DNA of 64,000 bases from NCBI GenBank assembly GCA_017516965.1, contig JAFXAP010000011.1:61219-125218 (forward strand), given 5' to 3'. The notes beneath the pieces are model-generated. The model worked only from the letters and a program-made list of their open reading frames with translations, was not told the DNA's origin and did no database searches. This stretch comes from Clostridia bacterium. GTDB taxonomy: Bacteria; Bacillota; Clostridia; Oscillospirales; Acutalibacteraceae. A program made the position numbers and the translations under genes. Below, piece after piece: positions 1 to 14,945 of this stretch (its first letter is position 1; each line of letters starts with the position of its first letter).

Positions 1-319
1 GAACGATTACGGGCATCGTTTTGAGTCCCAACACTTGACACGCCGCAAATCTGCGGTGACCAGATATCAGTTCAAAGCCGCCGTCTTCAAGCGGTCGTGC
101 AAGGGCGGGGGTTATCGCCCCGACCTTGCGAATGCTCTCAACCATTCGGTCCATTTCTTCGCCCGATTGAATTTTAAAGGGATGATCCTTGAAGGGGTGT
201 AGCTCCTCAAGGGGAATATTGTGTACTCGCTCTAAGCGTGCATCGTCTCTTTCCGCCTGCGTTGAAAAGATTGCATCAATGGGTATGGGCGGCAGAGTAA
301 AATCTGATTTTCTTGCCAT
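1..319 (-). CDS. ParB-like N-terminal (nuclease/CTPase) domain protein. Only the N-terminal 106 aa are present; the C-terminus is off-window. Not in the supplied ORF track.
   Basis: My translation of the reverse strand from the ATG at 319-317 reads MARKSDFTLPPIPIDAIFSTQAERDDARLERVHNIPLEELHPFKDHPFKIQ...FELISGHRRFAACQVLGLKTMPVIV. The HPF..NP-like box and the ISGHRR motif are typical of the ParB/Srx fold. The start abuts the stop of the upstream gene at 320. Confidence 0.7.
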   Translation of the reverse strand, partial: MARKSDFTLPPIPIDAIFSTQAERDDARLERVHNIPLEELHPFKDHPFKIQSGEEMDRMVESIRKVGAITPALARPLEDGGFELISGHRRFAACQVLGLKTMPVIV

Positions 320-535
320 TTATATGACCTCCTTTTTCGCTTTTTTCAGTAATTTAATTAGCTCGTCAATCTCATCTGGATAGAAGGCGATGCCTTTCAA
401 CGGCTTGCCGTTTCTCCAACGCCGCACGTCGATACACGGCTCGTTACTGCTCCATTTGATGATGTTGATTTCCTTTGTGTCGTTGCCGTTTTCTCCTGCA
501 ACTCCGATTTTCTTTATAATTTCGTATTCAAACAT
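320..535 (-). CDS. PC4/YdbC-like ssDNA-binding family protein (71 aa)
   Basis: The pattern FEYEIIKKIGV...KEINIIKWSSNEP.IDVRRW...KGIAF..DEIDELIKLL resembles Lactococcus YdbC (PC4-like fold), recalled from memory. It is tightly packed with the flanking minus-strand genes. Confidence 0.6.
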   Translation of the reverse strand: MFEYEIIKKIGVAGENGNDTKEINIIKWSSNEPCIDVRRWRNGKPLKGIAFYPDEIDELIKLLKKAKKEVI

Positions 536-547
536 TTTTGTTTCCTC

Positions 548-850
548 CTAAAGTTTTTCAATTTGTTTTAAATAGGTTTCACCCTTACTGCTTTGTCCGT
601 AGACAAGCCTGAGCCTTGTGCCGTTGTCCATTTCGTAGAAGCCTAAGTACCTCTGCCACCAGAACACCGGCGTTATGATCTTTCTTCCGTCTACCAACCG
701 AAGAAAAAGGCGAAGCATACCGCCCCTTGCTTCTGCTTTCATTTCGAGCGTTCCGATATATTCACCGGGCTTGTCCATAAAAGCATAATCGTTGGTGACG
801 ATCCCTGCCTCTTGCATTTCTGCTCGGCTGTAGACCTTGCTGTTTGCCAT
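548..850 (-). CDS. Hypothetical protein (100 aa), mobile-element backbone
   Basis: ORF preceded by the SD GGAGTGAG. It runs in the same direction and has similar G+C to the ParB-like and PC4-like genes. I recognise no family. Confidence 0.5.
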   Translation of the reverse strand: MANSKVYSRAEMQEAGIVTNDYAFMDKPGEYIGTLEMKAEARGGMLRLFLRLVDGRKIITPVFWWQRYLGFYEMDNGTRLRLVYGQSSKGETYLKQIEKL

Positions 851-954
851 TTGCTCACTCCTTTCTATAGATTAAAAATTCATTCTTTTTCGGAAAGTAA
901 GTTATATATTTATTTATATATTTAAGACCTCCGACCGTTTTTGGTTTTGACAAC

Positions 955-1445
955 CACCTCCTTTCACTTATTTGGAATTACACCCCTGATTTGCACCCCC
1001 TCACTAATTAGGAATTTTGAGACTGCTTTTGCACACCCAACTCGAAGGAAAATTTTTATCCCTTCACTTATTTGGACAAGGGGTACCGTTTTGGACACCC
1101 ATTTGTCGGGATTTCTGAAAAATATTTTTTTACCCTTCACTTATTTGCAATGGGAAAGGGTGTTTTTTAAGTCTATTTGCAAAATTTCTTTTCACTTGTT
1201 CCCACAGAGCGACCGCAAATTATCGGGTGTTTTGAAAAAATATTTTTGCCCAACCTCAGTTCCTGCTCGGAATCTCACCGTAGCGTTGCCTTGCTCGTAT
1301 CATCGCAAAGTCGTATCAGATCGGCGCTATTCAGTTGTCAAGGTACATTTGAAAGGTTCTTTCACTAATTCGCACTGAGAGAAGCCAATCCACAAGGGTA
1401 CTTCAAAAAGTTCCTTCACTTATTCCCACTGAGCAAGGCAATTTA
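955..1445 (+). repeat. Array of seven direct repeats (iteron-like) in a non-coding region
   Basis: The core TTCACTnnTTnSS occurs at 963-975, 1000-1012 (variant CTCACTAATTAGG), 1063-1075, 1136-1148, 1191-1203, 1371-1383 and 1425-1437. The last three extend to TTCACTnnTTCnCACnGAG. A second repeat, TGAAAAA(A)TATTTTT, occurs near 1116-1130 and 1233-1248. Confidence 0.8.
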
Positions 1446-1602
1446 CTAACCCCCTCTACTTTTAATTGCTGAATTTTTTTGGCGTTTAGACACTTTTCTT
1501 TCAGAAAAAGTATAAAAAAAGACGCCTATCTTTCGTAAGCGTCAGATGATCTATTAAATTTCAAAAAATGATAACACAAATAAATTTTTATTATCATTTT
1601 TA

Positions 1603-1631
1603 TTGACAAAATCCAAGTATCGAGATATAAT
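1603..1631 (+). promoter_or_regulatory. SigA-type promoter for the XRE-RM operon
   Basis: TTGACA (1603-1608), a 17-nt spacer, then TATAAT (1626-1631). Both hexamers are consensus. Confidence 0.75.
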
Positions 1632-1672
1632 AGTTTGTAAGCTAACTAACTTACATATAGGAGGTGATTTAT

Positions 1673-2083
1673 ATGCCTAAAAAAGACAACAATATTGAAT
1701 TTGTTGATTTAGATTCTCTTGAATACGAAGTTTTTGAATTCGGAAAATATTTACGGTCCGTACGACAAGCCAAAGGTATTTCGATCCGTCAGTTAGCTAA
1801 AGATGTTAATAAAACGCCAACGTATTTAAGCGATATTGAAAACGGGCATAACAAACCACCTGAAAAAGAACTGCTTGAAACTATTATTCAAAAGCTTAAT
1901 CTTGATGATTTTCCCAGGGTTAAATCTACACTATTTGATTTGGCTGCCAAGGAAAGAAATGATATACCTGCTGATGTTAAGGACTACATCATGAGTAATC
2001 AAACTTTATTAAGAATAATCCGTACCGCAAAAGATAGACCTAATAGTGAGCAAATATGGTCACAGATTGCGAAAACTATATAA
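1673..2083 (+). CDS. XRE-family helix-turn-helix regulator, controller (C-protein)-like, first gene of the RM operon
   Basis: HTH segment LRSVRQAKGISIRQLAKDVNKTPTYLSDIENG. AGGAGG (1659-1664) lies 8 nt before the ATG at 1673, so I prefer that start over the GTG at 1664 in the ORF track. Confidence 0.8.
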   Translation: MPKKDNNIEFVDLDSLEYEVFEFGKYLRSVRQAKGISIRQLAKDVNKTPTYLSDIENGHNKPPEKELLETIIQKLNLDDFPRVKSTLFDLAAKERNDIPADVKDYIMSNQTLLRIIRTAKDRPNSEQIWSQIAKTI

Positions 2084-2099
2084 TTTGGAGGTAAAAGCA

Positions 2100-4136
2100 A
2101 TGGCTAAAAAGCAAAAGAAACAGGAGGCTCTCTCTGTTAGCCGACTTATTAATGAAGTATTGGTGGCACAATTAAGCATTCCTTTCCGCCAAATTGTAAA
2201 TGATACTACTTTCTCAAAATATACTGGTTCAAAACGTCCGGATATTCTTATTTCTGAATTTGAATACGATGGTACTAACGATGAACAGTACATTAAAAAC
2301 CTTGTGGCATATGCCGAAGCGAAAGACGATTGCAAGGTTGGAGATAAGGATTGGAAAGATGCTTTGAAGCAGGGCAAAATCAAAGCACCTAAACTAGGCT
2401 TGCCTTACTTTATCGTTACAAACTGTAAAACCACATATTTTTATAATGCGAAAACCTTGAAACAGTTAACACTCAACGGTAATCCGATTCGTGAATTTCA
2501 GACCATTGATATTTATAGACTTATCAAGAACAAATTAACTGCAAATCCCGACTTGGATGCAATCAACACCAATGTTGACTCTATCTCTACAATCTCTGAA
2601 GCCATCTTTAACAAGAAGCTTTGGGAATTAGCAGGAGTGTATCGTGGCATAAACTTTAAGGACAATGTACAAAAGATTGACTTTACGGTTGGCTTTGTTG
2701 CCCTTGAATATTTTGAAGAAAAAGAAGAAATAGACGGCAACAAAGATGCATCTAAAGTATATTGGTCTACTTGTGATGATGAGGTTGCCGAAAAAGTAAA
2801 GAATAATTTAAGCGGTTATATTAGCCGCTTGGAAGATGAAACTACTTTCAAAGAATTCAAAAATGTTATGGAAGTAGTTAGAATTGCAATAAGTGGCGAT
2901 GGTAAAAACAAGCCTCTTATTAGTGTTGATGATGTTAAACAAATTTACAGCATAATTGATTCCATGAAACCTTTGCACGGAACTGGATTCGACTTGTTTG
3001 GTGCAGTTTACGAAATGTTTGCGTCGTCTAAAGAGAAAAAAGATTTCGGTGAGTATTTTACACGACGTCATTATACGCATATATTCTCTAAGTTGTTGTT
3101 ACAAGATGAAGATGTTTACAACGAAAAGAAGGAATTTTCAATTATAGATCCCGCTTGTGGTACAGGTGGATTCTTAACCGAGAGCTTTAAAGTCTTATTA
3201 AACAATTATGAAAAAAGCGGCACTTTGACTACTGAAGCAAGAGAGTTCCTTTCTAAAAAGTGTTTTTATGGCGTAGATGTCAGAGATGAAAATATATCAA
3301 GAACTCGTTTGAATATGTTCTTGGTTGGCGACGGGCATACCCATATGTATTCGGACAATTCTTTGAATCCAACAAGACAAAACGGCAAAGCCACGCTTAG
3401 CAAAAAATATCAGTATGTAATAACAAACCCTCCGTATGGTAACGGTACAATCAAAGCAAAAACCAACGCAATTTCCACAAACAGAACGGAGATAGCATTT
3501 ATTTGCAAAGTTATTGACCTGCTTGAAGTTGGCGGTAAAGCTTGTATCATTACCCCAGATGGCGTATTAGAAAACCCATCATACAAGAAACTTCGTCAAG
3601 AAATACTTGAAAAGTGTGAAATATATGCAATAGTTTCTTTGCCGAAATTTGCTTTTGCACCTTACACCAAGGAAAAGACCTATGCTTTATTCATCAAAAA
3701 GCGCAGCGAAAAAGTAACCAAAATACAAGATAAACCTATTTGGATGTATATCATTGACAATGATGGATTGGCCAATTCGGATAAAAGATTCCCAACTAAA
3801 CTACGTAACAACCGCAATGGTTGGATGCACGATGAAATATCCGGTTGGGTCAGTACTGATGGTGTTGAAATGCCTGGTGTTTTAGAAAAAAGGTGGTTAA
3901 CTTTTGATGATAGTACTAACCTTACTATGTGGATTGATGAGAAAGGTATCGCACAAACCGCAAGAAAGGGTGGTAATATCGATATTAATACAATCAAAAA
4001 CGATCATTATAAAACGCTGTTACCAGAGTATTATTTAAGACCATATTCTCCGCATTATATTAGTGAAACTGATTTTGAAGATGAATTAAAACAAATAGAT
4101 AATAGTATAAGGGGGTTGCTTGATGAAATTTCTTGA
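2100..4136 (+). CDS. Fused restriction endonuclease / N6-adenine DNA methyltransferase subunit, BcgI-A-like (type IIB/IIG)
   Basis: Gamma-class MTase motif I DPACGTGGFL precedes motif IV NPPYG. An N-terminal PD-(D/E)xK-like signature is present (RPDILISE...AYAEAKDD). GGAGG precedes the ATG at 2100. No separate HsdR gene is present. Confidence 0.8.
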   Translation: MAKKQKKQEALSVSRLINEVLVAQLSIPFRQIVNDTTFSKYTGSKRPDILISEFEYDGTNDEQYIKNLVAYAEAKDDCKVGDKDWKDALKQGKIKAPKLGLPYFIVTNCKTTYFYNAKTLKQLTLNGNPIREFQTIDIYRLIKNKLTANPDLDAINTNVDSISTISEAIFNKKLWELAGVYRGINFKDNVQKIDFTVGFVALEYFEEKEEIDGNKDASKVYWSTCDDEVAEKVKNNLSGYISRLEDETTFKEFKNVMEVVRIAISGDGKNKPLISVDDVKQIYSIIDSMKPLHGTGFDLFGAVYEMFASSKEKKDFGEYFTRRHYTHIFSKLLLQDEDVYNEKKEFSIIDPACGTGGFLTESFKVLLNNYEKSGTLTTEAREFLSKKCFYGVDVRDENISRTRLNMFLVGDGHTHMYSDNSLNPTRQNGKATLSKKYQYVITNPPYGNGTIKAKTNAISTNRTEIAFICKVIDLLEVGGKACIITPDGVLENPSYKKLRQEILEKCEIYAIVSLPKFAFAPYTKEKTYALFIKKRSEKVTKIQDKPIWMYIIDNDGLANSDKRFPTKLRNNRNGWMHDEISGWVSTDGVEMPGVLEKRWLTFDDSTNLTMWIDEKGIAQTARKGGNIDINTIKNDHYKTLLPEYYLRPYSPHYISETDFEDELKQIDNSIRGLLDEIS

Positions 4137-5238
4137 TGTTTTTAATGAAATTGAAAAAGGCAATTATGCATTAACGGATGAAGCTATTTATGTATCACTA
4201 CAAAATGGCGATGAGTTAATTCCCTTATATGGTGGAAATAAAGAACATAAAACAACAGACCGAAGAATTTCTATTTCCGCAAAAACGAAAAAAGGTGCAA
4301 CTATTAAAATTTTCTCTGGAGAAGGCATAATTATTAGCTTGGATGGCAGTGCTGGAAGTATGACATATAAAAACGGAGAAAAGTTTGCTTTAAATCATCA
4401 CGCAGGATTCATAACTTTACGCAAAGATGCTATTGATAAAGTGAACCTTGAATATTTCTCGTTATTCTTACAAAATTTTTATAGAGAAATGGGGGTAAGT
4501 GACGGCTCAAAAACATTATCATTGGAGCAGATTTATGCAGAGGAGTTTACGCTCCCTGATTATAATGTTCAATGTAATATTTTGAATTCTTTGAAACCCA
4601 TCAAAGATAAACTAGATGCCTTAATAAGGGTGAAGAACCATTGTTATGAGTTGATAAACAAAGAATTGACACCTGAATATAGTCAATATCAAGGAAAGCA
4701 AATCGAAATTTCAAAATGTATCGATTATATGAGCGGTTCTTCAAAATTAACTGAAGAGATGAACTATCAGCGACTAAAAATAGATGGCGATAAGTATTTG
4801 TTACTAACAGGCGCAACAGTCAAAGAAAACACTTATGTTACACTAAACGAAACTGTGAACGTACCCAAATTTGAACAAAGAGATGGATTGTTAGTAACGA
4901 GAAAAGGTAAAGCCGGAAATGTTCGATATTTACCTAAGGGTCATTATACTTTAAATGATGATGCGTATATTTTGTATGAAAGAGATGATTCTGAATATAA
5001 AATAAACTTACAGTGGCTATCAATTCAATATAAGCAAGAATTTCTTTTGCACGCATCAAATTCTGATAACGGAACATGGAACATGACAGGCTTTTTTGAG
5101 TGTACAAAGGTTGATATACCAAGTTTTGATGAACAACTATCTGTAGTAAATAATTACAACGCTTTACTACGTCGTATAAAAACAATTGAAGCTATAGAAA
5201 ATCAATACTATGAGCTCATCGCAAAAGAAATAGCATAA
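4123..5238 (+). CDS. Restriction-modification specificity subunit (HsdS/BcgI-B-like, two target-recognition halves)
   Basis: It overlaps the RM subunit stop by 14 nt and has an AAGGGGG SD. Two divergent halves are each followed by a helical conserved spacer (..LDALIRVKNHCYELINKEL.. and ..LLRRIKTIEAIENQYYELIAKEI), as in HsdS proteins. Confidence 0.75.
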   Translation: MKFLDVFNEIEKGNYALTDEAIYVSLQNGDELIPLYGGNKEHKTTDRRISISAKTKKGATIKIFSGEGIIISLDGSAGSMTYKNGEKFALNHHAGFITLRKDAIDKVNLEYFSLFLQNFYREMGVSDGSKTLSLEQIYAEEFTLPDYNVQCNILNSLKPIKDKLDALIRVKNHCYELINKELTPEYSQYQGKQIEISKCIDYMSGSSKLTEEMNYQRLKIDGDKYLLLTGATVKENTYVTLNETVNVPKFEQRDGLLVTRKGKAGNVRYLPKGHYTLNDDAYILYERDDSEYKINLQWLSIQYKQEFLLHASNSDNGTWNMTGFFECTKVDIPSFDEQLSVVNNYNALLRRIKTIEAIENQYYELIAKEIA

Positions 5239-5243
5239 AAGTG

Positions 5244-5287
5244 AAAAAGTGGGATAGCAACATTGTGTTGCGGCCCACTTTTCTTTT
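5244..5287. terminator. Bidirectional hairpin terminator between the convergent S-subunit and tnpV genes
   Basis: AAGTGGG (5247-5253) pairs with CCCACTT (5274-5280), with an inner GCAAC/GTTGC stem. An A-run lies upstream and a T-run downstream. Confidence 0.6.
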
Positions 5288-5657
5288 ACAAACAAATCTT
5301 TTCAGTATTGACGACTTCCTTTACACACTCACGGATAATATTCATCTTCTGCACCCACTTCATTTGGTCGGGGGCTTTGAGTTGTTCGGTGATGCCCTCT
5401 TTTTCGGCGTATTCTTTTACTAACCGAGAAAAAAGGTTTTGCGCTTGTTCTTCGACGTCTGCAAGGTGGGAATGGAGCTTGCCGGAAGTGAGCAGGTTAT
5501 GATACATAACTTTGCGATGGTGCTTTAGGTAGTGTAAGCGGCGTTGTCCCCATACGCCGATCGGTCGAGTATCATTTTCTTCTACGGTTAGATTCGGCAA
5601 GCGGTAGTCGCCCTGCATTGTGTACGTGCCGCCGTGTTGTTCGAATAATGTTTTCAT
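5286..5657 (-). CDS. tnpV: TnpV-family transposon-encoded protein (123 aa)
   Basis: MKTLFEQHGGTYTMQGDYRLPNLTVEENDTRPIGVWGQRRLHYLKHHRKVMY..LLTSGKLHSHLADVEEQA matches my recollection of Tn4451-type TnpV. AAAGGAGG lies 8 nt before the ATG at 5657, so the upstream extension in the ORF track is unlikely. Confidence 0.75.
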   Translation of the reverse strand: MKTLFEQHGGTYTMQGDYRLPNLTVEENDTRPIGVWGQRRLHYLKHHRKVMYHNLLTSGKLHSHLADVEEQAQNLFSRLVKEYAEKEGITEQLKAPDQMKWVQKMNIIRECVKEVVNTEKICL

Positions 5658-5663
5658 ATAGCA

Positions 5664-5702
5664 AAACCTCCTTTGATGCTTTGATTGTACCAAAGGAGGT
5701 TT
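5664..5702 (-). promoter_or_regulatory. 12-bp perfect hairpin that sequesters the tnpV Shine-Dalgarno sequence
   Basis: AAACCTCCTTTG (5664-5675) pairs with CAAAGGAGGTTT (5691-5702) around a 15-nt loop. In the minus-strand RNA the 3' arm contains the tnpV SD (AAAGGAGG) and is followed by TTTTG. Confidence 0.6.
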
Positions 5703-5786
5703 GTTTTTGCGAATGTGTGATTTTGAAAATTGCAAATGGGTATTAGGGTGTCCCTAACGAGTACTGTTTTGCGACAATCGGAGTAC

Positions 5787-5879
5787 AAACGGTCTGCTCG
5801 CTAAGATGATGCAATCATTGGGCGAGCGAGCGTTTTACGGGAATGTATATATAAACAGTCTGCTCGCTAAGATGATACA
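5787..5879. repeat. Two copies of a roughly 26-nt direct repeat, 66 nt apart
   Basis: AAACRGTCTGCTCGCTAAGATGATRCA occurs with cores at 5792-5813 and 5858-5879. It lies upstream of tnpV and downstream of the neighbouring gene's terminator. Confidence 0.8.
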
Positions 5880-5892
5880 GATATTTTTTTCC

Positions 5893-5942
5893 AAACAAAA
5901 AACAAGCACAGCGGACAGAGTTTTAATTCTATCTGCTATGCT
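5893..5942 (-). terminator. Rho-independent terminator downstream of the 5956-6255 gene
   Basis: A 14-bp imperfect stem (5905-5918 with 5929-5942) is followed on the minus strand by TGTTTTTTGTTTGG. Confidence 0.6.
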
Positions 5943-5955
5943 TTTGTAATTGATT

Positions 5956-6255
5956 TTATTCCTTTAACAAGTCCTCGAACGGTGTTTCGGTTGAAATGAA
6001 AGCATCATAAGCGAAGTTGGCGCCGAGGCGAAAACCCATAATAAAACTGTCAAGATTTGATTCGCCGTTGACAATGCTCCACGCATTTGAGAAGTCCAAA
6101 AACCATTTCTTCGGCTCGTCGGTCAAAGCGTTTGTGAGCAAATCTTCTGTCTTCATCAGCACTTCCATTTGCTTTTGTACCGTCTTATTTTGCTTCGTAC
6201 TGCGTGCCTGCGGATCAATATTTCCGTAATAAAATTCTTCAATAAACCGTGCCAT
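5956..6255 (-). CDS. Small conserved Clostridia mobile-element protein (99 aa). It resembles the family I recall as DUF6809; the family number is unverified.
   Basis: MARFIEEFYYGNIDPQ......GFRLGANFAYDAF matches the recurring ..YYGNI.P.. and GFRLGA pattern of small proteins found in Clostridia ICEs. GAGGAGGTG precedes the ATG at 6255. Confidence 0.5.
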   Translation of the reverse strand: MARFIEEFYYGNIDPQARSTKQNKTVQKQMEVLMKTEDLLTNALTDEPKKWFLDFSNAWSIVNGESNLDSFIMGFRLGANFAYDAFISTETPFEDLLKE

Positions 6256-6351
6256 AGTCAGCACCTCCTCATGCCTAAAGTTTAGCAAAAGGAGAAAGAA
6301 ACTGCGACTCTGCAAATTTAAAAATCGCACATTGGTATAATTTATTGAAAC

Positions 6352-6382
6352 AAAAATAAGCAACTACCGTTAAGATAGTTGC
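6352..6382 (-). terminator. Rho-independent terminator closing the protease cassette
   Basis: GCAACTACC (6360-6368) pairs with GATAGTTGC (6374-6382), including one G-U pair. On the minus strand it is followed by TTATTTTT. It lies 10 nt after the protease stop. Confidence 0.7.
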
Positions 6383-6391
6383 TTATGTGTT

Positions 6392-7303
6392 TTACGGTTG
6401 TATCACAATATACGAACCTTTACCCAAATGATTTTCAATAATTTTTACACAAGGAGCTACATCAAATGTCACTAAAGTTGCATGAAAAACACTCAACACT
6501 TTATCCTGGAGTTCCTGATCGTTTTCGAGAAGAGTAATTTTTAATCCCTTTTCTTGAGCCAACTGATAATTTATAGGACGTCCGTGTGTTTTGTGTTCAT
6601 TAAAATCTCCTAACCAGCCCGCAATAGAAGCCCCTTTCTTGTCATCATCTTTAAACATATAAGTGTCGAGCCATTCCGCAACTTTCGATTTAGAAAGATC
6701 AATTGTTTTCTGACACAAATCCAAGAAGCCATTAGGAATTTCCATAAGTTTGGGGATCCAAACATTTGCGGAATTTTTATCGGCAGCAATTTCTATTTTT
6801 GCTCTTTCAAAATCCGCAAGAATAGAGTGTGCAGGTAAAGTGTGTGCAACTCCGTTTTGTTTTACAAGCGTCATTTGGGGATCGATAGGGCCTATTGCTG
6901 ATTGTTTTCCCATAACAATTTCATCACATGCGCACGCTAACATCGTGGCAGCAGACATTGCACTTTGTGGAATAATAGCTCGAATATATTGATATTTTGC
7001 TCTTAAATATTGAACCAATTGCTCAGTAGCTTCAAGGGAACCGCCAGGGCTGTGAATTATCAAATCAAGTTTATCACCTTTTAATCCATTAAGGCAAGTC
7101 ATGAAACCCTGAATATCATTAGAACCAATACTCAAAAGATTGCCTGGTACGTTTGGATGCCTACAAGGAAAAGATGCAGCATAAACTATTGTATCATTTC
7201 CGGTGTACTCGTTCAAATTAGACAGATACTCTCTTCGAATAATATCTTGTCCTGCATTTTTATATTCTACAATTTTTCCTAATATCTCATTTTTGTTAGC
7301 CAT
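6392..7303 (-). CDS. ClpP-fold serine protease of the S49 / SDH (serine dehydrogenase proteinase-like) family, 303 aa
   Basis: LDLIIHSPGGSLEAT (oxyanion-hole/GG element) and IIPQSAMSAATMLACACDEIVMG (nucleophile Ser context) are typical of SppA/SDH_sah-type Clp-fold peptidases. No signal peptide or TM segment is evident. AAGGTGGA lies upstream of the ATG at 7303. Confidence 0.75.
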   Translation of the reverse strand: MANKNEILGKIVEYKNAGQDIIRREYLSNLNEYTGNDTIVYAASFPCRHPNVPGNLLSIGSNDIQGFMTCLNGLKGDKLDLIIHSPGGSLEATEQLVQYLRAKYQYIRAIIPQSAMSAATMLACACDEIVMGKQSAIGPIDPQMTLVKQNGVAHTLPAHSILADFERAKIEIAADKNSANVWIPKLMEIPNGFLDLCQKTIDLSKSKVAEWLDTYMFKDDDKKGASIAGWLGDFNEHKTHGRPINYQLAQEKGLKITLLENDQELQDKVLSVFHATLVTFDVAPCVKIIENHLGKGSYIVIQP

Positions 7304-7481
7304 TACTTCCACCTTCGCAAATTACAAAACTGTACTGTTCACTAGCAACTTCACAAGACTCTTTGATGCTAAGGATTTGATTAAAAAATTCGTTATCACT
7401 TTCAGCAAACTCTTTAAAAAGCAATTCCTTTTCTTTTTCTAAGGTATTAATAGCATAATCTTTAAACTGTTCTTTAACCAT
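7296..7481 (-). CDS. Small acidic protein (61 aa), translationally coupled to the protease
   Basis: GGAGGA lies 7 nt before the ATG at 7481. Its stop overlaps the protease start by 8 nt (ATGGCTAA). I count 13 D/E against 6 K/R, and the composition looks helical. I recognise no family. Confidence 0.6.
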   Translation of the reverse strand: MVKEQFKDYAINTLEKEKELLFKEFAESDNEFFNQILSIKESCEVASEQYSFVICEGGSNG

Positions 7482-7497
7482 AGGTTAATCCTCCACG

Positions 7498-7578
7498 GTT
7501 TCATATTATGATGAAACAAAACAAGTTGATGAATATATCTATATTCGATATTATAACACATAATTTTAAATAAATAAA
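7498..7578 (-). promoter_or_regulatory. Candidate internal promoter plus operator for the small-ORF/protease pair
   Basis: On the minus strand an extended -10 TGTTATAAT is the complement of 7550-7558, with a weak -35 TTTATT (7573-7578). A perfect inverted repeat GTTTCAT-N6-ATGAAAC (7498-7517) sits between this -10 and the SD. Confidence 0.5.
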
Positions 7579-7586
7579 GTATAAAT

Positions 7587-7790
7587 TTAATCATCCCATT
7601 TTCGTCCCGGTACGGCTTCCATATCGAACATTGCAAGGGCTTGGTTGATTTTATGGAGTGTGATATTGTCTTTGCCTTGTTCAAGGTCACGGAGAGCATG
7701 TAGACCTATTCCGGAGAGCTCTGCGAACCTCTCTTGAGTTAGATGGGCGGCTTTACGCTCCATTTTAATATATTCGGCTATCTTATTCAT
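7587..7790 (-). CDS. XRE-family HTH protein, HipB/y4mF-like (67 aa)
   Basis: MERKAAHLTQERFAELSGIGLHALRDLEQGKDNITLHKINQAL is the short HTH type usually encoded just upstream of HipA-family kinases. No HipA gene follows here. The SD is weak. Overlapping palindromes at 7797-7832 lie immediately upstream. Confidence 0.75.
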   Translation of the reverse strand: MNKIAEYIKMERKAAHLTQERFAELSGIGLHALRDLEQGKDNITLHKINQALAMFDMEAVPGRKWDD

Positions 7791-7935
7791 AAATTCACTA
7801 TACGTAATCGGTATAGTTTTTGAAAACTACACTCAAAGCTATCCCGATTTTGCGGTATTTTTGCACCTCGCTTTCTATATCTGTTTACGGGTGCATTTTA
7901 ACAGAAAAACAGAGCTATAACAAACGTGCGAACAT

Positions 7936-11643: not shown

Positions 11644-12729
11644 TCAGTTATGTCTATGAATACGCATAAATTCCATATAATTAATCCATGCGTGACGTGA
11701 TAAAAAGTGTGTAGTAGCTGTCATGCTAAAGCCAACATTGCCCTCAAGTAATTTTTCACCAGGGTTAAGATATTGGTCACACTTCTGCAAACCAACAAGA
11801 CCTAAATTTTCCCAAGCCTCGCTTGCAGCAAGACAGCAAAGCTGTTCACCCTTTTGGTCAGCCCAAAAGTCCAACTCAGCAGCAGTTACGCACACATTGC
11901 GTGGCGCAATACTTGCTACAAGATAATGTTGGTCAAAGTTGGTTCCGTAATTTTGCTTAGCATATTTTAAATAATTTTTACAGAACCAATAGGGGAATAC
12001 TCTTGTAATTCTTTCAACGGTTTCACCACGATATTTTTCTTCAACGGCATAGTTGCCACCGCTATCAGCAAGTCCCGAGTTGCCACGCGAAAGTGTATCA
12101 CCACTGCAACCTGCATTATTAGACAAAGAAAAAGTAAATCTTTCATCTAACATACCTGTAACTAAAGCAGTTTTACCAAGGCGTGATTGACCAACAATAG
12201 CAATATTATTTTCGTCAACGCAATCCAATGTAAGCGCGTAATCAAGCACACGCATATTACCAAAAGCCCAAAGACCAATTTTGCCACAGTCGGTGTCGTC
12301 TTGTCTTCCGTTTGGAAATACAAGCGGAGCAATACCTGTGGTAAAATCACCGTCGTCACTAGTTATATCGGTATAAGTAAATATGATTAGGTTATAACCA
12401 TTTTCAACAATTTCTTCTTCGGGAACAAAATTACCTGGGTATCTGCCAGCAATATGAAGTATTGTTGGGTGCTTTTTACCATCGGTGTGCAAAAATTGGT
12501 TAATAGGGAAAGTGTGAGAACCGTTTTTATTTGTTAAGGTAAAATCAACGGTTGAATAGATAACTTCACCTTTTGCAAGACGACCATCTTTGCGTTTGTA
12601 ATTTGAAATTTCCCATTTAAAATTATTTTGCGGTAAATATCCATATTCTTCGCGCTGCAATATTTCAACCATTTCTTCGCGTGAAAGCAGTGGTGGAAGA
12701 TTACGGTTTAATAATTCTTGTTTTAACAT
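11644..12729 (-). CDS. Alpha/beta-hydrolase, CE15 glucuronoyl-esterase-like (paralog 1 of 3), no signal peptide
   Basis: GQSRLGKTAL (compare the CE15 G-C/H-S-R-x-G nucleophile motif), DERF...SNNAGCSGD..SRG, FDQHYLVASIAPR and C-terminal HFLSRHAW. Confidence 0.6.
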   Translation of the reverse strand: MLKQELLNRNLPPLLSREEMVEILQREEYGYLPQNNFKWEISNYKRKDGRLAKGEVIYSTVDFTLTNKNGSHTFPINQFLHTDGKKHPTILHIAGRYPGNFVPEEEIVENGYNLIIFTYTDITSDDGDFTTGIAPLVFPNGRQDDTDCGKIGLWAFGNMRVLDYALTLDCVDENNIAIVGQSRLGKTALVTGMLDERFTFSLSNNAGCSGDTLSRGNSGLADSGGNYAVEEKYRGETVERITRVFPYWFCKNYLKYAKQNYGTNFDQHYLVASIAPRNVCVTAAELDFWADQKGEQLCCLAASEAWENLGLVGLQKCDQYLNPGEKLLEGNVGFSMTATTHFLSRHAWINYMEFMRIHRHN

Positions 12730-12742
12730 ATTGCTACCTCTT

Positions 12743-13837
12743 TTATTTGTTTAGATGTTTGCGCATAAATTCCATATAATTAATCCATGCGTGACGTGAT
12801 AAGAAATGCATTGTAGGCGCCATAAATAATCCAACGTTACCATCAAGCAATTTTTCGCCACCTGTAAGGTAGTGGTCGCACTCCTGCATACCGTCAAGTC
12901 CCATATTTTCCCAGGCTTTAGCTGCCGCCATACAGCAAAGCTGTTGTGATTTTTGGTCAGCCCAGTAGTCAAGTTCTGCGGCATTTACGCAAATCTTACG
13001 AGGCGCAATACTTGCTAAAACAAAGTGCTGGTCAAAGTTGTCGCCATAGTTTAACTCGCCGTGTTTTTTATAGTTTTCACAAAACCAGCAAGCTGCCCAG
13101 ATTGATGTAAGGTTAGAAATAATTTCGCCTCGAAACTCTTGTTCTACCTTGTAATTACTGTTTTCATCTGGAAGACCTGAACCGCCACGAGCGATTGCAT
13201 CGCCACTGCAACCTGCATTGTTCGACAATACAAATGAAAAACGTTCATCCATCATTCCGGTAAAGAGCGCTGTTTTTCCAAGACGCGAGTGACCAAGAAT
13301 TGCTACGTTTTTGCTGTCGGTATTGGGTAGAGTAAGCACATAATCTAATACACGCATATTTGCAAAAGCCCAAAGACCAATTTTACCGCAATCGGTTTCG
13401 TTTTGTCTGCCATTTGGGAATATAAGTGGCGCAATGCCTGTCGAAAAATCGGGGTCATCACTTGTTATGTCGGTATAACAATAAGTAATAATGTCAAATT
13501 CTTGCTCGGCAAGTTCTTCTATAGGGAAGTATTTATCGGGTACTTGTTTATCAATGTTGATGCAAATAATTACAGGACGCTTTTTATCATCCTGATGCAA
13601 AAGTCGATAAACAGGAAAGGTGTGACTACCGTTTTTGTTGATAAGGGTAAGATCAACACTTGACAAAAAAACATTACCTTTTGAAAAACGGCGCTCAATT
13701 ATTTTTTCATTAGAAACTGACCATTCAAAGTCGTTTTTTGGAAGATAACCATACTCTTCACGCTGCATGATTTCTAACATTTCTTCACGTGAAAGCAGTG
13801 GTGGAAGATTGCGTTCTAATAAGTCTTGGTTTAACAT
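12743..13837 (-). CDS. Alpha/beta-hydrolase, CE15 glucuronoyl-esterase-like (paralog 2 of 3)
   Basis: GHSRLGKTAL, DERFSFVLSNNAGCSGDAIARGG and FDQHFVLASIAPR. It aligns along its whole length with the two neighbours. Confidence 0.6.
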   Translation of the reverse strand: MLNQDLLERNLPPLLSREEMLEIMQREEYGYLPKNDFEWSVSNEKIIERRFSKGNVFLSSVDLTLINKNGSHTFPVYRLLHQDDKKRPVIICINIDKQVPDKYFPIEELAEQEFDIITYCYTDITSDDPDFSTGIAPLIFPNGRQNETDCGKIGLWAFANMRVLDYVLTLPNTDSKNVAILGHSRLGKTALFTGMMDERFSFVLSNNAGCSGDAIARGGSGLPDENSNYKVEQEFRGEIISNLTSIWAACWFCENYKKHGELNYGDNFDQHFVLASIAPRKICVNAAELDYWADQKSQQLCCMAAAKAWENMGLDGMQECDHYLTGGEKLLDGNVGLFMAPTMHFLSRHAWINYMEFMRKHLNK

Positions 13838-13850
13838 ATTGCTTCCTCTT

Positions 13851-14945
13851 TTATTTATTTAGATGTTTACGCATAAATTCCATATAGTTATTCCATGCGT
13901 GACGTGATAAGAAATGCATTGTAGGTGCCATAAAGAAGCCAACGTTGCCGTCAAGTAATCTCTCGCCGCTTGTAAGGTAGTGGTCACATTCCTGTATACC
14001 GTCAAGTCCCATATCTTCCCAAGCCTTAGCCGCTGCCATACAGCAAAGTTGTTCACTTTTTTGATCAGCCCAGTAGTCTAACTCTGCGGCATTTACGCAA
14101 ACATTACGAGGCGCAATACTGCCAAGTAAAAAGTGTTGATCAAAATCAGTGCCATAGCCTTGCTCTGCATAGTTTTTATAGTTAGCACAAAACCAGTATG
14201 GGAATACACGGGTTATTACTTCAATATTTTCGCCGCGGAACTCTTTTTCAATTAAAAAATTTCCTTCATCATCGAATTGAATACCTGTACCGCCACGGGC
14301 AATAGCATCACCTGCGCAACCGGCATTATTTGAGAAAACGTGTGTAAAACGTTCATCTAACATACCTGTAACTAATGCGGTTTTACCAAGGCGTGAATGA
14401 CCAAGTATTGCAATATTTTTATTATCAGTACCGTCCAGTGTAAGCACGTAATCAAGAACACGCATATTAGCAAAAGCCCAAAGACCAATTTTGCCGCAAT
14501 CGGTATCATTTTGTCGGCCGTTAGGAAAAACGAGTGGCGCGATACCTGTTGTAAAATCATCATTATCGCTTGTTATATCGGCATAGCAATATGTAATTAT
14601 ATCAAATTCCTGTTCGGCAAGTTCTTCTATAGGGAAGTATTTATCAGGTACTCGTTTATCAATGTTAATGCAAAGAATAACAGGGTGTTTTTTGCCATCT
14701 TGGTGTAAAATTTTGTGGACAGGGAAGGTATGACTACCGTTTTTGTTGGTTAGGGTAAAATCAACGCTTGAATGAAATACAGTACCTTTTGCAAAACGAC
14801 GTTCAATAATTTTTTCATTAGAAACTGACCATTCAAAATCATTTTTTGGTAAATAACCATAAACCTCACGTTGCATGATTTCAATCATATCTTCACGTGG
14901 TAAAAGTGCGGGGAGATTACGATTTTTAAGTTCTTGTTTTAACAT
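13851..14945 (-). CDS. Alpha/beta-hydrolase, CE15 glucuronoyl-esterase-like (paralog 3 of 3)
   Basis: GHSRLGKTAL, DERFTHVFSNNAGCAGDAIARGG and FDQHFLLGSIAPR. Its C-terminus FMAPTMHFLSRHAWNNYMEFMRKHLNK is nearly identical to that of paralog 2. Confidence 0.6.
   Translation of the reverse strand: MLKQELKNRNLPALLPREDMIEIMQREVYGYLPKNDFEWSVSNEKIIERRFAKGTVFHSSVDFTLTNKNGSHTFPVHKILHQDGKKHPVILCINIDKRVPDKYFPIEELAEQEFDIITYCYADITSDNDDFTTGIAPLVFPNGRQNDTDCGKIGLWAFANMRVLDYVLTLDGTDNKNIAILGHSRLGKTALVTGMLDERFTHVFSNNAGCAGDAIARGGTGIQFDDEGNFLIEKEFRGENIEVITRVFPYWFCANYKNYAEQGYGTDFDQHFLLGSIAPRNVCVNAAELDYWADQKSEQLCCMAAAKAWEDMGLDGIQECDHYLTSGERLLDGNVGFFMAPTMHFLSRHAWNNYMEFMRKHLNK

Follow-up and report, generated by a model that had tools for sequence, protein, structure and literature searches.

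A conserved gene pair of a small acidic protein and a soluble ClpP-fold serine protease as a possible protease-effector module of bacteria and archaea

Introduction

Which genes of a short minus-strand cassette belong together, and what might they do? This question is raised by a locus in a 64,000-nucleotide (nt) stretch of DNA from a Clostridia bacterium (contig JAFXAP010000011.1, positions 61,219 to 125,218; hereafter the window), in which a gene for an XRE-family helix-turn-helix (HTH) protein of 67 amino acids (7587..7790, minus strand) is followed by an open reading frame (ORF) for an acidic protein of 61 amino acids (7296..7481, minus strand) and by the gene for a cytoplasmic SDH-type ClpP-fold serine protease of 303 amino acids (6392..7303, minus strand). 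A first-pass annotation, made from the sequence of the window, had proposed that the three genes constitute an undescribed defence- or toxin-antitoxin-like module that is autoregulated by the XRE protein. Comparison with related loci suggests that the functional unit is a two-gene operon, consisting of the small acidic, mostly helical protein and the soluble SDH-type ClpP-fold serine protease. It is quite possible that this pair is a protease-effector toxin-antitoxin or abortive-infection-type module, in which the protease is restrained by its small partner; this reading is put forward tentatively.

The layout described by the first-pass annotation holds up well. All three co-directional genes are present, and the unit ends with an intrinsic terminator, which consists of a 13-bp stem, a 5-nt loop and a T-run (6356..6386, minus strand, read from 6386 to 6356). 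The 61-amino-acid ORF is preceded by a GGAGGA Shine-Dalgarno (SD) sequence (7494 to 7489), located 7 nt ahead of its ATG, and encodes 13 Asp and Glu residues against six Lys and Arg residues, with an isoelectric point of 4.3.

A small acidic partner is conserved upstream of the protease

The partner gene was found by position, not by homology search. A direct sequence search with the 61-amino-acid ORF returns two near-identical clusters, and a profile of 40 partners retrieves 15 significant matches among 5.8 billion proteins, because the partner proteins are short and divergent. Partners were defined as same-strand ORFs of 45 to 130 amino acids terminating within -100 to +35 nt of the start of the protease gene, and 77 species-level loci with enough upstream DNA were surveyed, using random positions in the same loci as control. 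An upstream partner ORF is found in 71 of the 77 loci, compared to 24% for the control, and the tighter interval from -25 to +35 nt contains a partner in 60 of the 77 loci (control: 11%). Re-reading of apparent exceptions recovered partners in L020, L031, L049, L053 and L067. The 61-amino-acid ORF of the window is the local form of this partner gene. When the window ORF was left out of the family profile, it still scored 17.1 bits (E-value 6.8e-5), 12.4 to 14.5 of which are supplied by residues 12-52; it is the sole match among the 334 ORFs of the window, the runner-up reaching 2.6 bits.

The partners share a common plan, in which an acidic helix with the motif [DS]-[LY]-E-x-E-[KR]-x-x-L-[LI] is followed by a second helix, a short hydrophobic stretch and a polar tail. 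A second partner type with the pattern "PGI.DLM.VYG...TT.SS" accompanies the more distant proteases of archaea, Proteobacteria and viruses. Profile-profile comparison of the first type ("LE.E..LL...G..DA") with the second one using hhalign gives a P-value of 0.0016, and a common origin of both types is likely but unproven. Structure prediction of the small protein alone with AlphaFold2 (AF2) yields a helix spanning residues 2-42 (predicted local distance difference test score, pLDDT, of 81-93) and a disordered tail, an arrangement that would be typical of a partner that becomes ordered upon binding. The small protein has no match in Pfam, PADLOC, NCBIfam or PHROG; the domain family of the protease has been catalogued already, whereas the partner family is present in none of the searched libraries.

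The conservation of the small ORF, on which the first-pass proposal leaned, is evident both from its retention in the 71 loci and from the substitution pattern. In comparison to L092, a diverged relative in which the protease is 98% and the small protein 80% identical, the small ORF has a ratio of nonsynonymous to synonymous substitution rates (dN/dS) of 0.14, which shows purifying selection, and the XRE and protease genes have ratios of 0.09 and 0.04, respectively. In a set of 63 loci, pairwise identities among the small proteins correlate with those among the proteases (Spearman 0.47, Mantel p 0.001). Where the proteases are 70-80% identical, the small proteins share 35% identity, and where the proteases are 50-60% identical, 16% is left. 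The small protein is co-inherited with the protease and diverges much faster.

The three-gene architecture proposed by the annotation does not extend beyond close relatives, and the core of the module comprises two genes. None of the 113 candidate upstream ORFs from 79 other loci matches HTH_3 at an E-value of 1e-3 or lower, a search in which the XRE protein of the window reaches 5.7e-7. Furthermore, precomputed annotation lists no XRE gene upstream of the protease in the closer lineages P0014, P0019, P0059, P0107 and P0115, whose proteases are 62-84% identical. The XRE gene is a lineage-specific neighbour, which lies outside the conserved module.

Two side observations concern the position of the small gene. 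In the Gordonia phage BeeGee, an unannotated ORF of 58 amino acids (L089 3753-3929; MW601219.1 26498-26674) ends exactly at the start of gp31, a homolog of the protease, and is probably its overlooked partner gene. On a Methylosinus plasmid (L135) and a Leptospira plasmid (L136), more distant SDH-family proteins with 27-30% identity are encoded with a hypothetical gene of 61-76 amino acids immediately downstream, which may be a rearranged version of the pairing; one of these two loci adjoins a Fic gene.

The two genes are translationally coupled

In about 50 related loci, the overlaps of the small ORF and the protease gene cluster at 8, 11, 14 and 17 nt. As the annotation had stated, the overlap is 8 nt in the window, where ATGGCTAA joins the end of the small ORF to the start of the protease gene. 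The SD site of the protease gene (GAAGGTGGA; 7304..7316, minus strand) lies within the last codons of the small ORF, which encode E-G-G, and this arrangement is found family-wide, with the SD site located at -10 to -15 inside a conserved Gly codon of the small proteins. Read in the frame of the small ORF, AAGGAG encodes K-G-A, GGAGG encodes E/G-G and AGGTG, the version of the window, encodes E-G-G. The terminal [DNY]-A of the small proteins corresponds to xAT-GCC, which overlaps the ATG-CCN (Met-Pro) of the protease. The tail motif G-x-x-[DNY]-A is mostly a nucleotide-level by-product of the SD sequence and the ATG of the protease gene and is evidence for strict translational coupling. Together, the small ORF and the protease gene are a self-contained, translationally coupled unit. 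A more general lesson is that a seemingly conserved peptide motif can be the ribosome-binding site and start codon of the neighbouring gene in another frame.

The protease is a soluble member of the SDH-type ClpP-fold family

The annotation had described the protease as a cytoplasmic peptidase of the SppA/SDH-type Clp fold carrying HSPGGS and SAMSAATMLACACDEIVMG motifs; both motifs are present, and the protein is placed above the gathering threshold of the Pfam family SDH_protease (PF01972; 65.6 bits, threshold 31.3, E-value 4.7e-18). It further matches phrog_11747, a family of unknown function, over its full length (4e-74). Other models are matched below their cut-offs: 81.1 bits are reached for the NCBIfam equivalog NF047768 (SDH family Clp fold serine proteinase; cut-off 250), which places the window protease in a separate subfamily, 30.8 bits for NfeD1b_N (cut-off 40), a weaker match of the NfeD type, and 21.6 bits for SppA_dom (cut-off 155). 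The protein contains neither a signal peptide nor a segment resembling a transmembrane helix, its maximal Kyte-Doolittle score over 19 residues being 1.42.

An AF2 model of the protease (pLDDT 88, predicted template modelling score 0.87) was compared with solved structures using Foldseek, and the nearest ones are B. subtilis SppA, the stomatin-specific NfeD 1510-N and ClpP, with TM-scores of about 0.3-0.6 depending on normalisation and E-values near 1e-3. One of the matching SppA entries shows the C-termini of the enzyme located in its own active sites. A profile search of the PDB sequences has 1510-N as its sole match (E-value 0.004); in this alignment, the nucleophilic Ser of 1510-N is aligned with Ser117 of the protease, and Lys138 of 1510-N falls within one or two residues of His159, which is part of a PAH motif. 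Like the SDH-type ClpP-like serine proteinases (PF01972, MEROPS S49-related), the protease combines a ClpP/crotonase-type core with an oxyanion-type HSPGG loop, which begins at H84, and a Ser in an AMSAA motif, Ser117; it differs from the PF01972 group by a helical C-terminal domain of roughly 140 residues. H84, G87-G88, S117, D141-P-Q, H240, K287 and E290-N291 are invariant in 63 homologs, and S85 is kept in 62 of the 63. Ser117 is likely the nucleophile, and Ser117, Asp141 and His240 presumably form the catalytic set. Since these catalytic-type residues are intact and invariant, the homologs suggest an active protease. Natural fusions of the small protein to the protease were considered and rejected, as longer homologs carry Pro/Gln-rich C-terminal tails instead.

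Among predicted viral structures (BFVD), the best matches are giant-virus "serine dehydrogenase proteinase" paralogs with TM-scores of 0.5-0.65, and phage prohead proteases score lower. Klosneuvirinae, Marseillevirus, Mimivirus-like viruses and Tupanvirus encode several of these paralogous proteins.

Distribution and genomic contexts of the pair

The protease has 2,520 detectable relatives, and 583 clusters at 50% identity reach an E-value of 1e-30 or lower among 1.84 billion representatives. In the GTDB species-level genome set, 362 copies are present; the best 80 of these are 45-77% identical to the window protease and are found in Clostridia, Bacteroidota, many Proteobacteria, Spirochaetes, Verrucomicrobia, Planctomycetes, Methanomassiliicoccales, Halobacteriota and one Asgard archaeon. 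A search of 5,426 complete E. coli genomes detected no DNA-level relative. Apart from the partner, none of the neighbouring genes is common to more than seven loci, and the pair is a mobile, cross-domain unit, whose two genes move between genomes together.

The annotation had expected relatives of the cassette in the vicinity of defence and mobile-element genes, and toxin-antitoxin genes, restriction-modification systems, integrases and prophage accessory regions are indeed found nearby. The immediate neighbours in 70 loci include integrases, transposases, Eco57I and N6_N4 methylases, PIN, HepT and UPF0175/DUF3368 proteins as well as AbiJ, Schlafen/AlbA_2, Fic and UvrD. In single lineages, the pair lies beside Fic with VbhA, at the end of a serine-recombinase element, beside AAA_21, Trypsin_2 and SocA_Panacea genes, or between two integrases, where it adjoins an N6_N4 methylase and an MvaI/BcnI type II restriction-modification system; at a plasmid locus, it is found beside IS1 and MbcA/RES. 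In an Oscillospiraceae lineage (L099-L103, 2440-6936), the pair starts 8 nt downstream of a DUF1156-DUF499/HEPN_Swt1 gene set and is probably co-transcribed with this putative defence system.

In viruses, the family is rare, with seven of 50,697 phage records and 14 of 2.9 million IMG/VR contigs, and a small upstream ORF precedes every viral protease copy. The pair is located after the tail genes in the Gordonia phage BeeGee and next to the integrase in a Pseudomonas prophage. In the Shewanella Mu-like phage MuM16-1, where it corresponds to p14-p15, it is flanked by the late regulator and the lysis genes, and in a Klebsiella lambdoid prophage, where it is represented by WP_008807825.1 and WP_032426283.1, it lies in the nin region. 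In P. gingivalis phages (five near-identical records), it is found beside HicAB, between portal/adaptor and neck genes. The expectation that the family would not occur in phage head-morphogenesis modules was borne out for four of the five distinct viral contexts, which were read gene by gene and in which the pair occupies accessory positions outside the head module; the P. gingivalis phages are less clear and may have it in a head-module position. Among the 25 most frequent PHROG families of 89 neighbouring proteins, there are no major capsid, scaffold or head-maturation protease families. Overall, the relatives of the protease retain the small ORF and do not belong to head-morphogenesis or housekeeping operons, and the proposal of the annotation survives this check.

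Possible function of the pair

How could such a pair work? In the proposed mechanism, the small protein would bind the protease, thereby holding it inactive or restricted, like an antitoxin or a bait. If the small protein was lost, displaced or no longer made, for instance when a phage infects the cell or the element that carries the pair is lost, the protease would be freed and could cleave host or invader proteins, thereby stopping growth or phage development. As a local variant, the unrelated XRE repressor encoded upstream may add transcriptional control. Physical binding, inhibition, toxicity and a role in defence are what we infer for the pair. With somewhat more reserve, it can be speculated that the pair represents an unrecognised immunity or addiction family of bacteria and archaea, in which a self-compartmentalising ClpP-fold protease acts as effector and a rapidly diversifying partner of about 60 amino acids serves as its lock and possibly as an infection sensor.

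Several features are reminiscent of type II toxin-antitoxin systems: a small acidic upstream gene overlaps a larger gene (by 8 nt here and by 8-17 nt in most relatives), both genes are inherited jointly and spread horizontally, and they are found among toxin-antitoxin and defence genes. In contrast to these systems, the upstream protein lacks a DNA-binding fold and is predicted by AF2 to be a single long helix. The nearest solved structures, SppA and NfeD 1510-N, are likewise ATPase-free ClpP-fold enzymes, which cut an exposed tail, and NfeD is encoded beside its own substrate, as the protease is encoded beside its small partner. However, SppA and NfeD are membrane-bound and use a Ser-Lys dyad, whereas both proteins of the pair are soluble, and the partner of NfeD is an SPFH protein of about 250 amino acids, compared to a helical protein of about 60 amino acids that belongs to no known family. 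The concept of a protease effector that is carried on plasmids or prophages and stays silent until it is triggered is shared with two further systems. The Lit/Gol system consists of a zinc metalloprotease and a phage capsid peptide as its partner, and in the IetAS system, the subtilisin-like protease IetS is combined with the ATPase IetA (PMC13069673). However, the proteases of these two systems belong to unrelated classes, subtilisins and zinc metalloproteases, and their partners, an ATPase and a phage capsid peptide, are different.

The absence of a described system with this architecture, as supposed by the annotation, agrees with the searches: neither the protease nor the small protein matches a model of a known or candidate system in PADLOC-DB v2.0.0, and no description of the pair was found in the searchable literature, subscription-only papers being outside its scope. 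Likewise, no assigned biological role or partner protein was found for the SDH-type family. We know of no ClpP-fold protease toxin. If the proposal is correct, the pair would contain the first ClpP-fold protease "toxin" and would add a new effector class, a ClpP fold without an ATPase partner, to prokaryotic immunity. It would also provide the first biological role for the SDH-type protease family, which spans lineages as distant as gut Clostridia and Asgard archaea and has giant-virus paralogs, and a further case of a fast-diverging small protein, invisible to sequence search, that is the key partner of a conserved enzyme.

A number of points weigh against a restrained toxic protease. ClpP-fold enzymes that lack an unfoldase usually cut only peptides or exposed tails, and no unfoldase is present that could feed folded substrates to the protease; thus, broad toxicity is not obvious. 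Most type II antitoxins carry a DNA-binding domain, whereas none of the 40 small partners has an HTH, ribbon-helix-helix (RHH) or AbrB match. After re-reading, no small ORF was found in three to four loci (L002, L040, L061). Docking of the C-terminal motif of the small protein in the active site was considered as evidence for inhibition and was rejected, because the motif is mostly explained by the overlapping SD sequence and ATG of the protease gene. Furthermore, many immediate neighbours of the pair in the 70 loci are housekeeping genes, and the association with defence genes is descriptive, without a matched-control enrichment statistic.

Alternatively, the small protein could be a dedicated substrate, a pro-peptide or a specificity or assembly factor of the protease with a non-toxic role, such as yielding a processed small protein or controlling some stage in the life of the element that carries the pair. 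This is unlikely but deserves serious consideration. By analogy, NfeD cuts its operon partner stomatin. The closest solved folds also belong to enzymes that cut a defined tail, namely the stomatin-specific NfeD 1510-N and SppA, the latter in a structure whose active sites contain its own C-termini; a small protein with a predicted disordered tail would suit such an enzyme, and tight translational coupling would also suit an enzyme-substrate pair. However, a partner that diverges fast next to a highly conserved enzyme and a scattered occurrence across domains, in variable regions, are more in keeping with a conflict system than with a processing pathway, and there is no conserved third gene to use a processed product. 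That mobile elements and prophages use the pair for counter-defence or competition, with the protease destroying a host or rival protein and the partner targeting or timing this activity, seems improbable. Such a role would be in line with the finding that the pair occupies accessory regions of prophages as well as ends of integrative elements and with the existence of a PHROG family for the protease. On the other hand, the family is far commoner in cells than in viruses (362 GTDB species hits compared to the 14 viral contigs and seven phage records), and the cassette of the window lies outside the mobile element and keeps its synteny with ppdK in two lineages of 92% identity.

The position of the XRE gene, 105 nt upstream on the same strand and without an intervening terminator, calls to mind the ImmR/ImmA and CapH/CapP systems, in which an XRE gene also precedes a protease gene, and the protease might accordingly be imagined to cleave the XRE repressor. 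This is very unlikely: the proteases of these systems are M78/IrrE metalloproteases and not serine enzymes, and they are conserved as pairs with their XRE partner, whereas the XRE gene is missing at the 79 other loci and in the five closer lineages, and the palindromes at the XRE promoter and in the leader of the small ORF are unrelated. There is an equally slim chance that the protease is a housekeeping, SppA-type peptide-clearing enzyme with an incidental upstream ORF. The ClpP/S49-type fold would be compatible with such a role; the protein is soluble, however, its distribution is patchy with varying neighbourhoods, and the upstream ORF is retained under selection and inherited jointly with the protease gene. 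It is barely plausible that the pair is what remains of a phage head-maturation module, comprising a prohead protease and a scaffold-like small protein, and the annotation had already considered a prohead-protease role unlikely. Weak partial matches to head-maturation proteases span residues 67-151, and the pair of the P. gingivalis phages lies between portal/adaptor and neck genes. Yet the Clp_rel_HeadMat model is matched with 39 bits at a cut-off of 120, no portal, capsid or terminase genes are found near the cassette in the window, the best fold matches are SDH proteins and not prohead proteases, and the family is rare in phages, where it occupies variable non-head positions (post-tail, lysis, nin, integrase).

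The XRE gene and its regulatory DNA

The gene at 7790 to 7587 had been annotated as a HipB-like XRE gene, and it encodes the 67-amino-acid protein with the HTH_3 match mentioned above. It scores 58 bits against TIGR03070 (Y4mF/HipB-type), below the cut-off of 71.65, and matches only generic HTH and control-protein models in PADLOC-DB v2.0.0. Overlapping inverted repeats, which the annotation had recognised as palindromes, cover a promoter-like site of the XRE gene (7797..7832) and are a candidate auto-operator of the XRE protein; this region is identical in L092.

The spacer of 105 nt between the XRE gene and the pair (7482..7586, minus strand) contains the SD sequence of the small ORF and, as annotated, an extended -10 element, TGTTATAAT (7558 to 7550), as well as the perfect inverted repeat GTTTCAT-N6-ATGAAAC (7498-7517). 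No -35 element was found in the spacer, and there is no terminator between the XRE gene and the pair. The TATAAT and both arms of the repeat are unchanged in L092, and their flanks contain substitutions and an adjacent deletion of 9 nt. Inverted repeats of 7 nt are common in the A+T-rich spacer, with three in 421 nt, and only the repeat at 7498-7517 has extra support, as its arms are kept in L092; it is a candidate operator or mRNA hairpin. A common operator for the XRE protein at both promoters was considered and rejected, as the repeats at 7797-7832 and the repeat at 7498-7517 share no sequence. The XRE protein may still add local transcriptional control of the pair. Five of 13 lineages (the window, L092, L111, L022 and L039) have an inverted repeat of 7-9 nt some 36-45 nt ahead of the small ORF, and the sequences of these repeats are unrelated between lineages. 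They could be a co-evolving operator, an mRNA hairpin or a product of chance in A+T-rich DNA, and are too weak to call.

Genomic position of the cassette and neighbouring genes

Is the cassette cargo of a mobile element, as the first-pass annotation had assumed? Contigs with an identical protease show the gene order ppdK, XRE gene, small ORF, protease gene, DUF6809, TnpV, a restriction-modification unit, a ParB-like gene and a serine recombinase gene. The restriction-modification unit consists of an S-subunit gene, a fused N6-methylase/Eco57I-type gene and a controller-like XRE gene. Two element-free contigs, L087 (91.6% identical over 3.45 kb) and L088 (98.5% identical over 1.5 kb), keep ppdK, the XRE gene, the small ORF and the protease gene, and their similarity to the window breaks at 6348/6347, just past the terminator, where a glycerate kinase gene comes next. 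Thus, the cassette borders the recombinase element, which starts right after the terminator of the protease gene, and is not part of its cargo. No ppdK locus without the cassette was identified via the identical PPDK protein, as this search returned only contigs that carry the cassette or end right after ppdK.

A low G+C content, which had been taken to set the cassette apart from the backbone, does not distinguish it: the value of the protease gene (0.367) is close to that of the whole window (0.370), and G+C content was therefore rejected as a sign of foreign origin. The small ORF has a G+C content of 0.306 and the XRE gene of 0.441, and ppdK (0.447) is the outlier.

The adjacent element is about 9 kb in size, is bounded by a large serine recombinase of 600 amino acids and occupies positions 1-6347 of the window, extending past its start, and 10957-19925 of L081. 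Its cargo comprises DUF6809, TnpV, the controller-like XRE gene (1664-2083), a PC4-like DNA-binding protein and a ParB_N protein. It also encodes the fused N6-methylase/Eco57I-type protein of 696 amino acids, which has an HSDR_N-like N-terminus (2046-4136), and the S subunit (4120-5238); these two genes are similar to a type IIB/IIG restriction-modification unit.

The divergence between the window and L092 is mosaic. The last 370 nt or so of the protease gene (about 6392-6760) and the terminator stem are identical, and most differences are found in the 5' part of the protease gene, the small ORF and the middle of the XRE gene (synonymous divergence, dS, of 0.27-0.68), a pattern that suggests recombination within the cassette. 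Further away, three tandem paralogs of the GCE_fung-like (glucuronoyl esterase) type with 361-364 amino acids are encoded on the minus strand of the window (11644-14945), between the S component of an ECF transporter and a pantothenate kinase.

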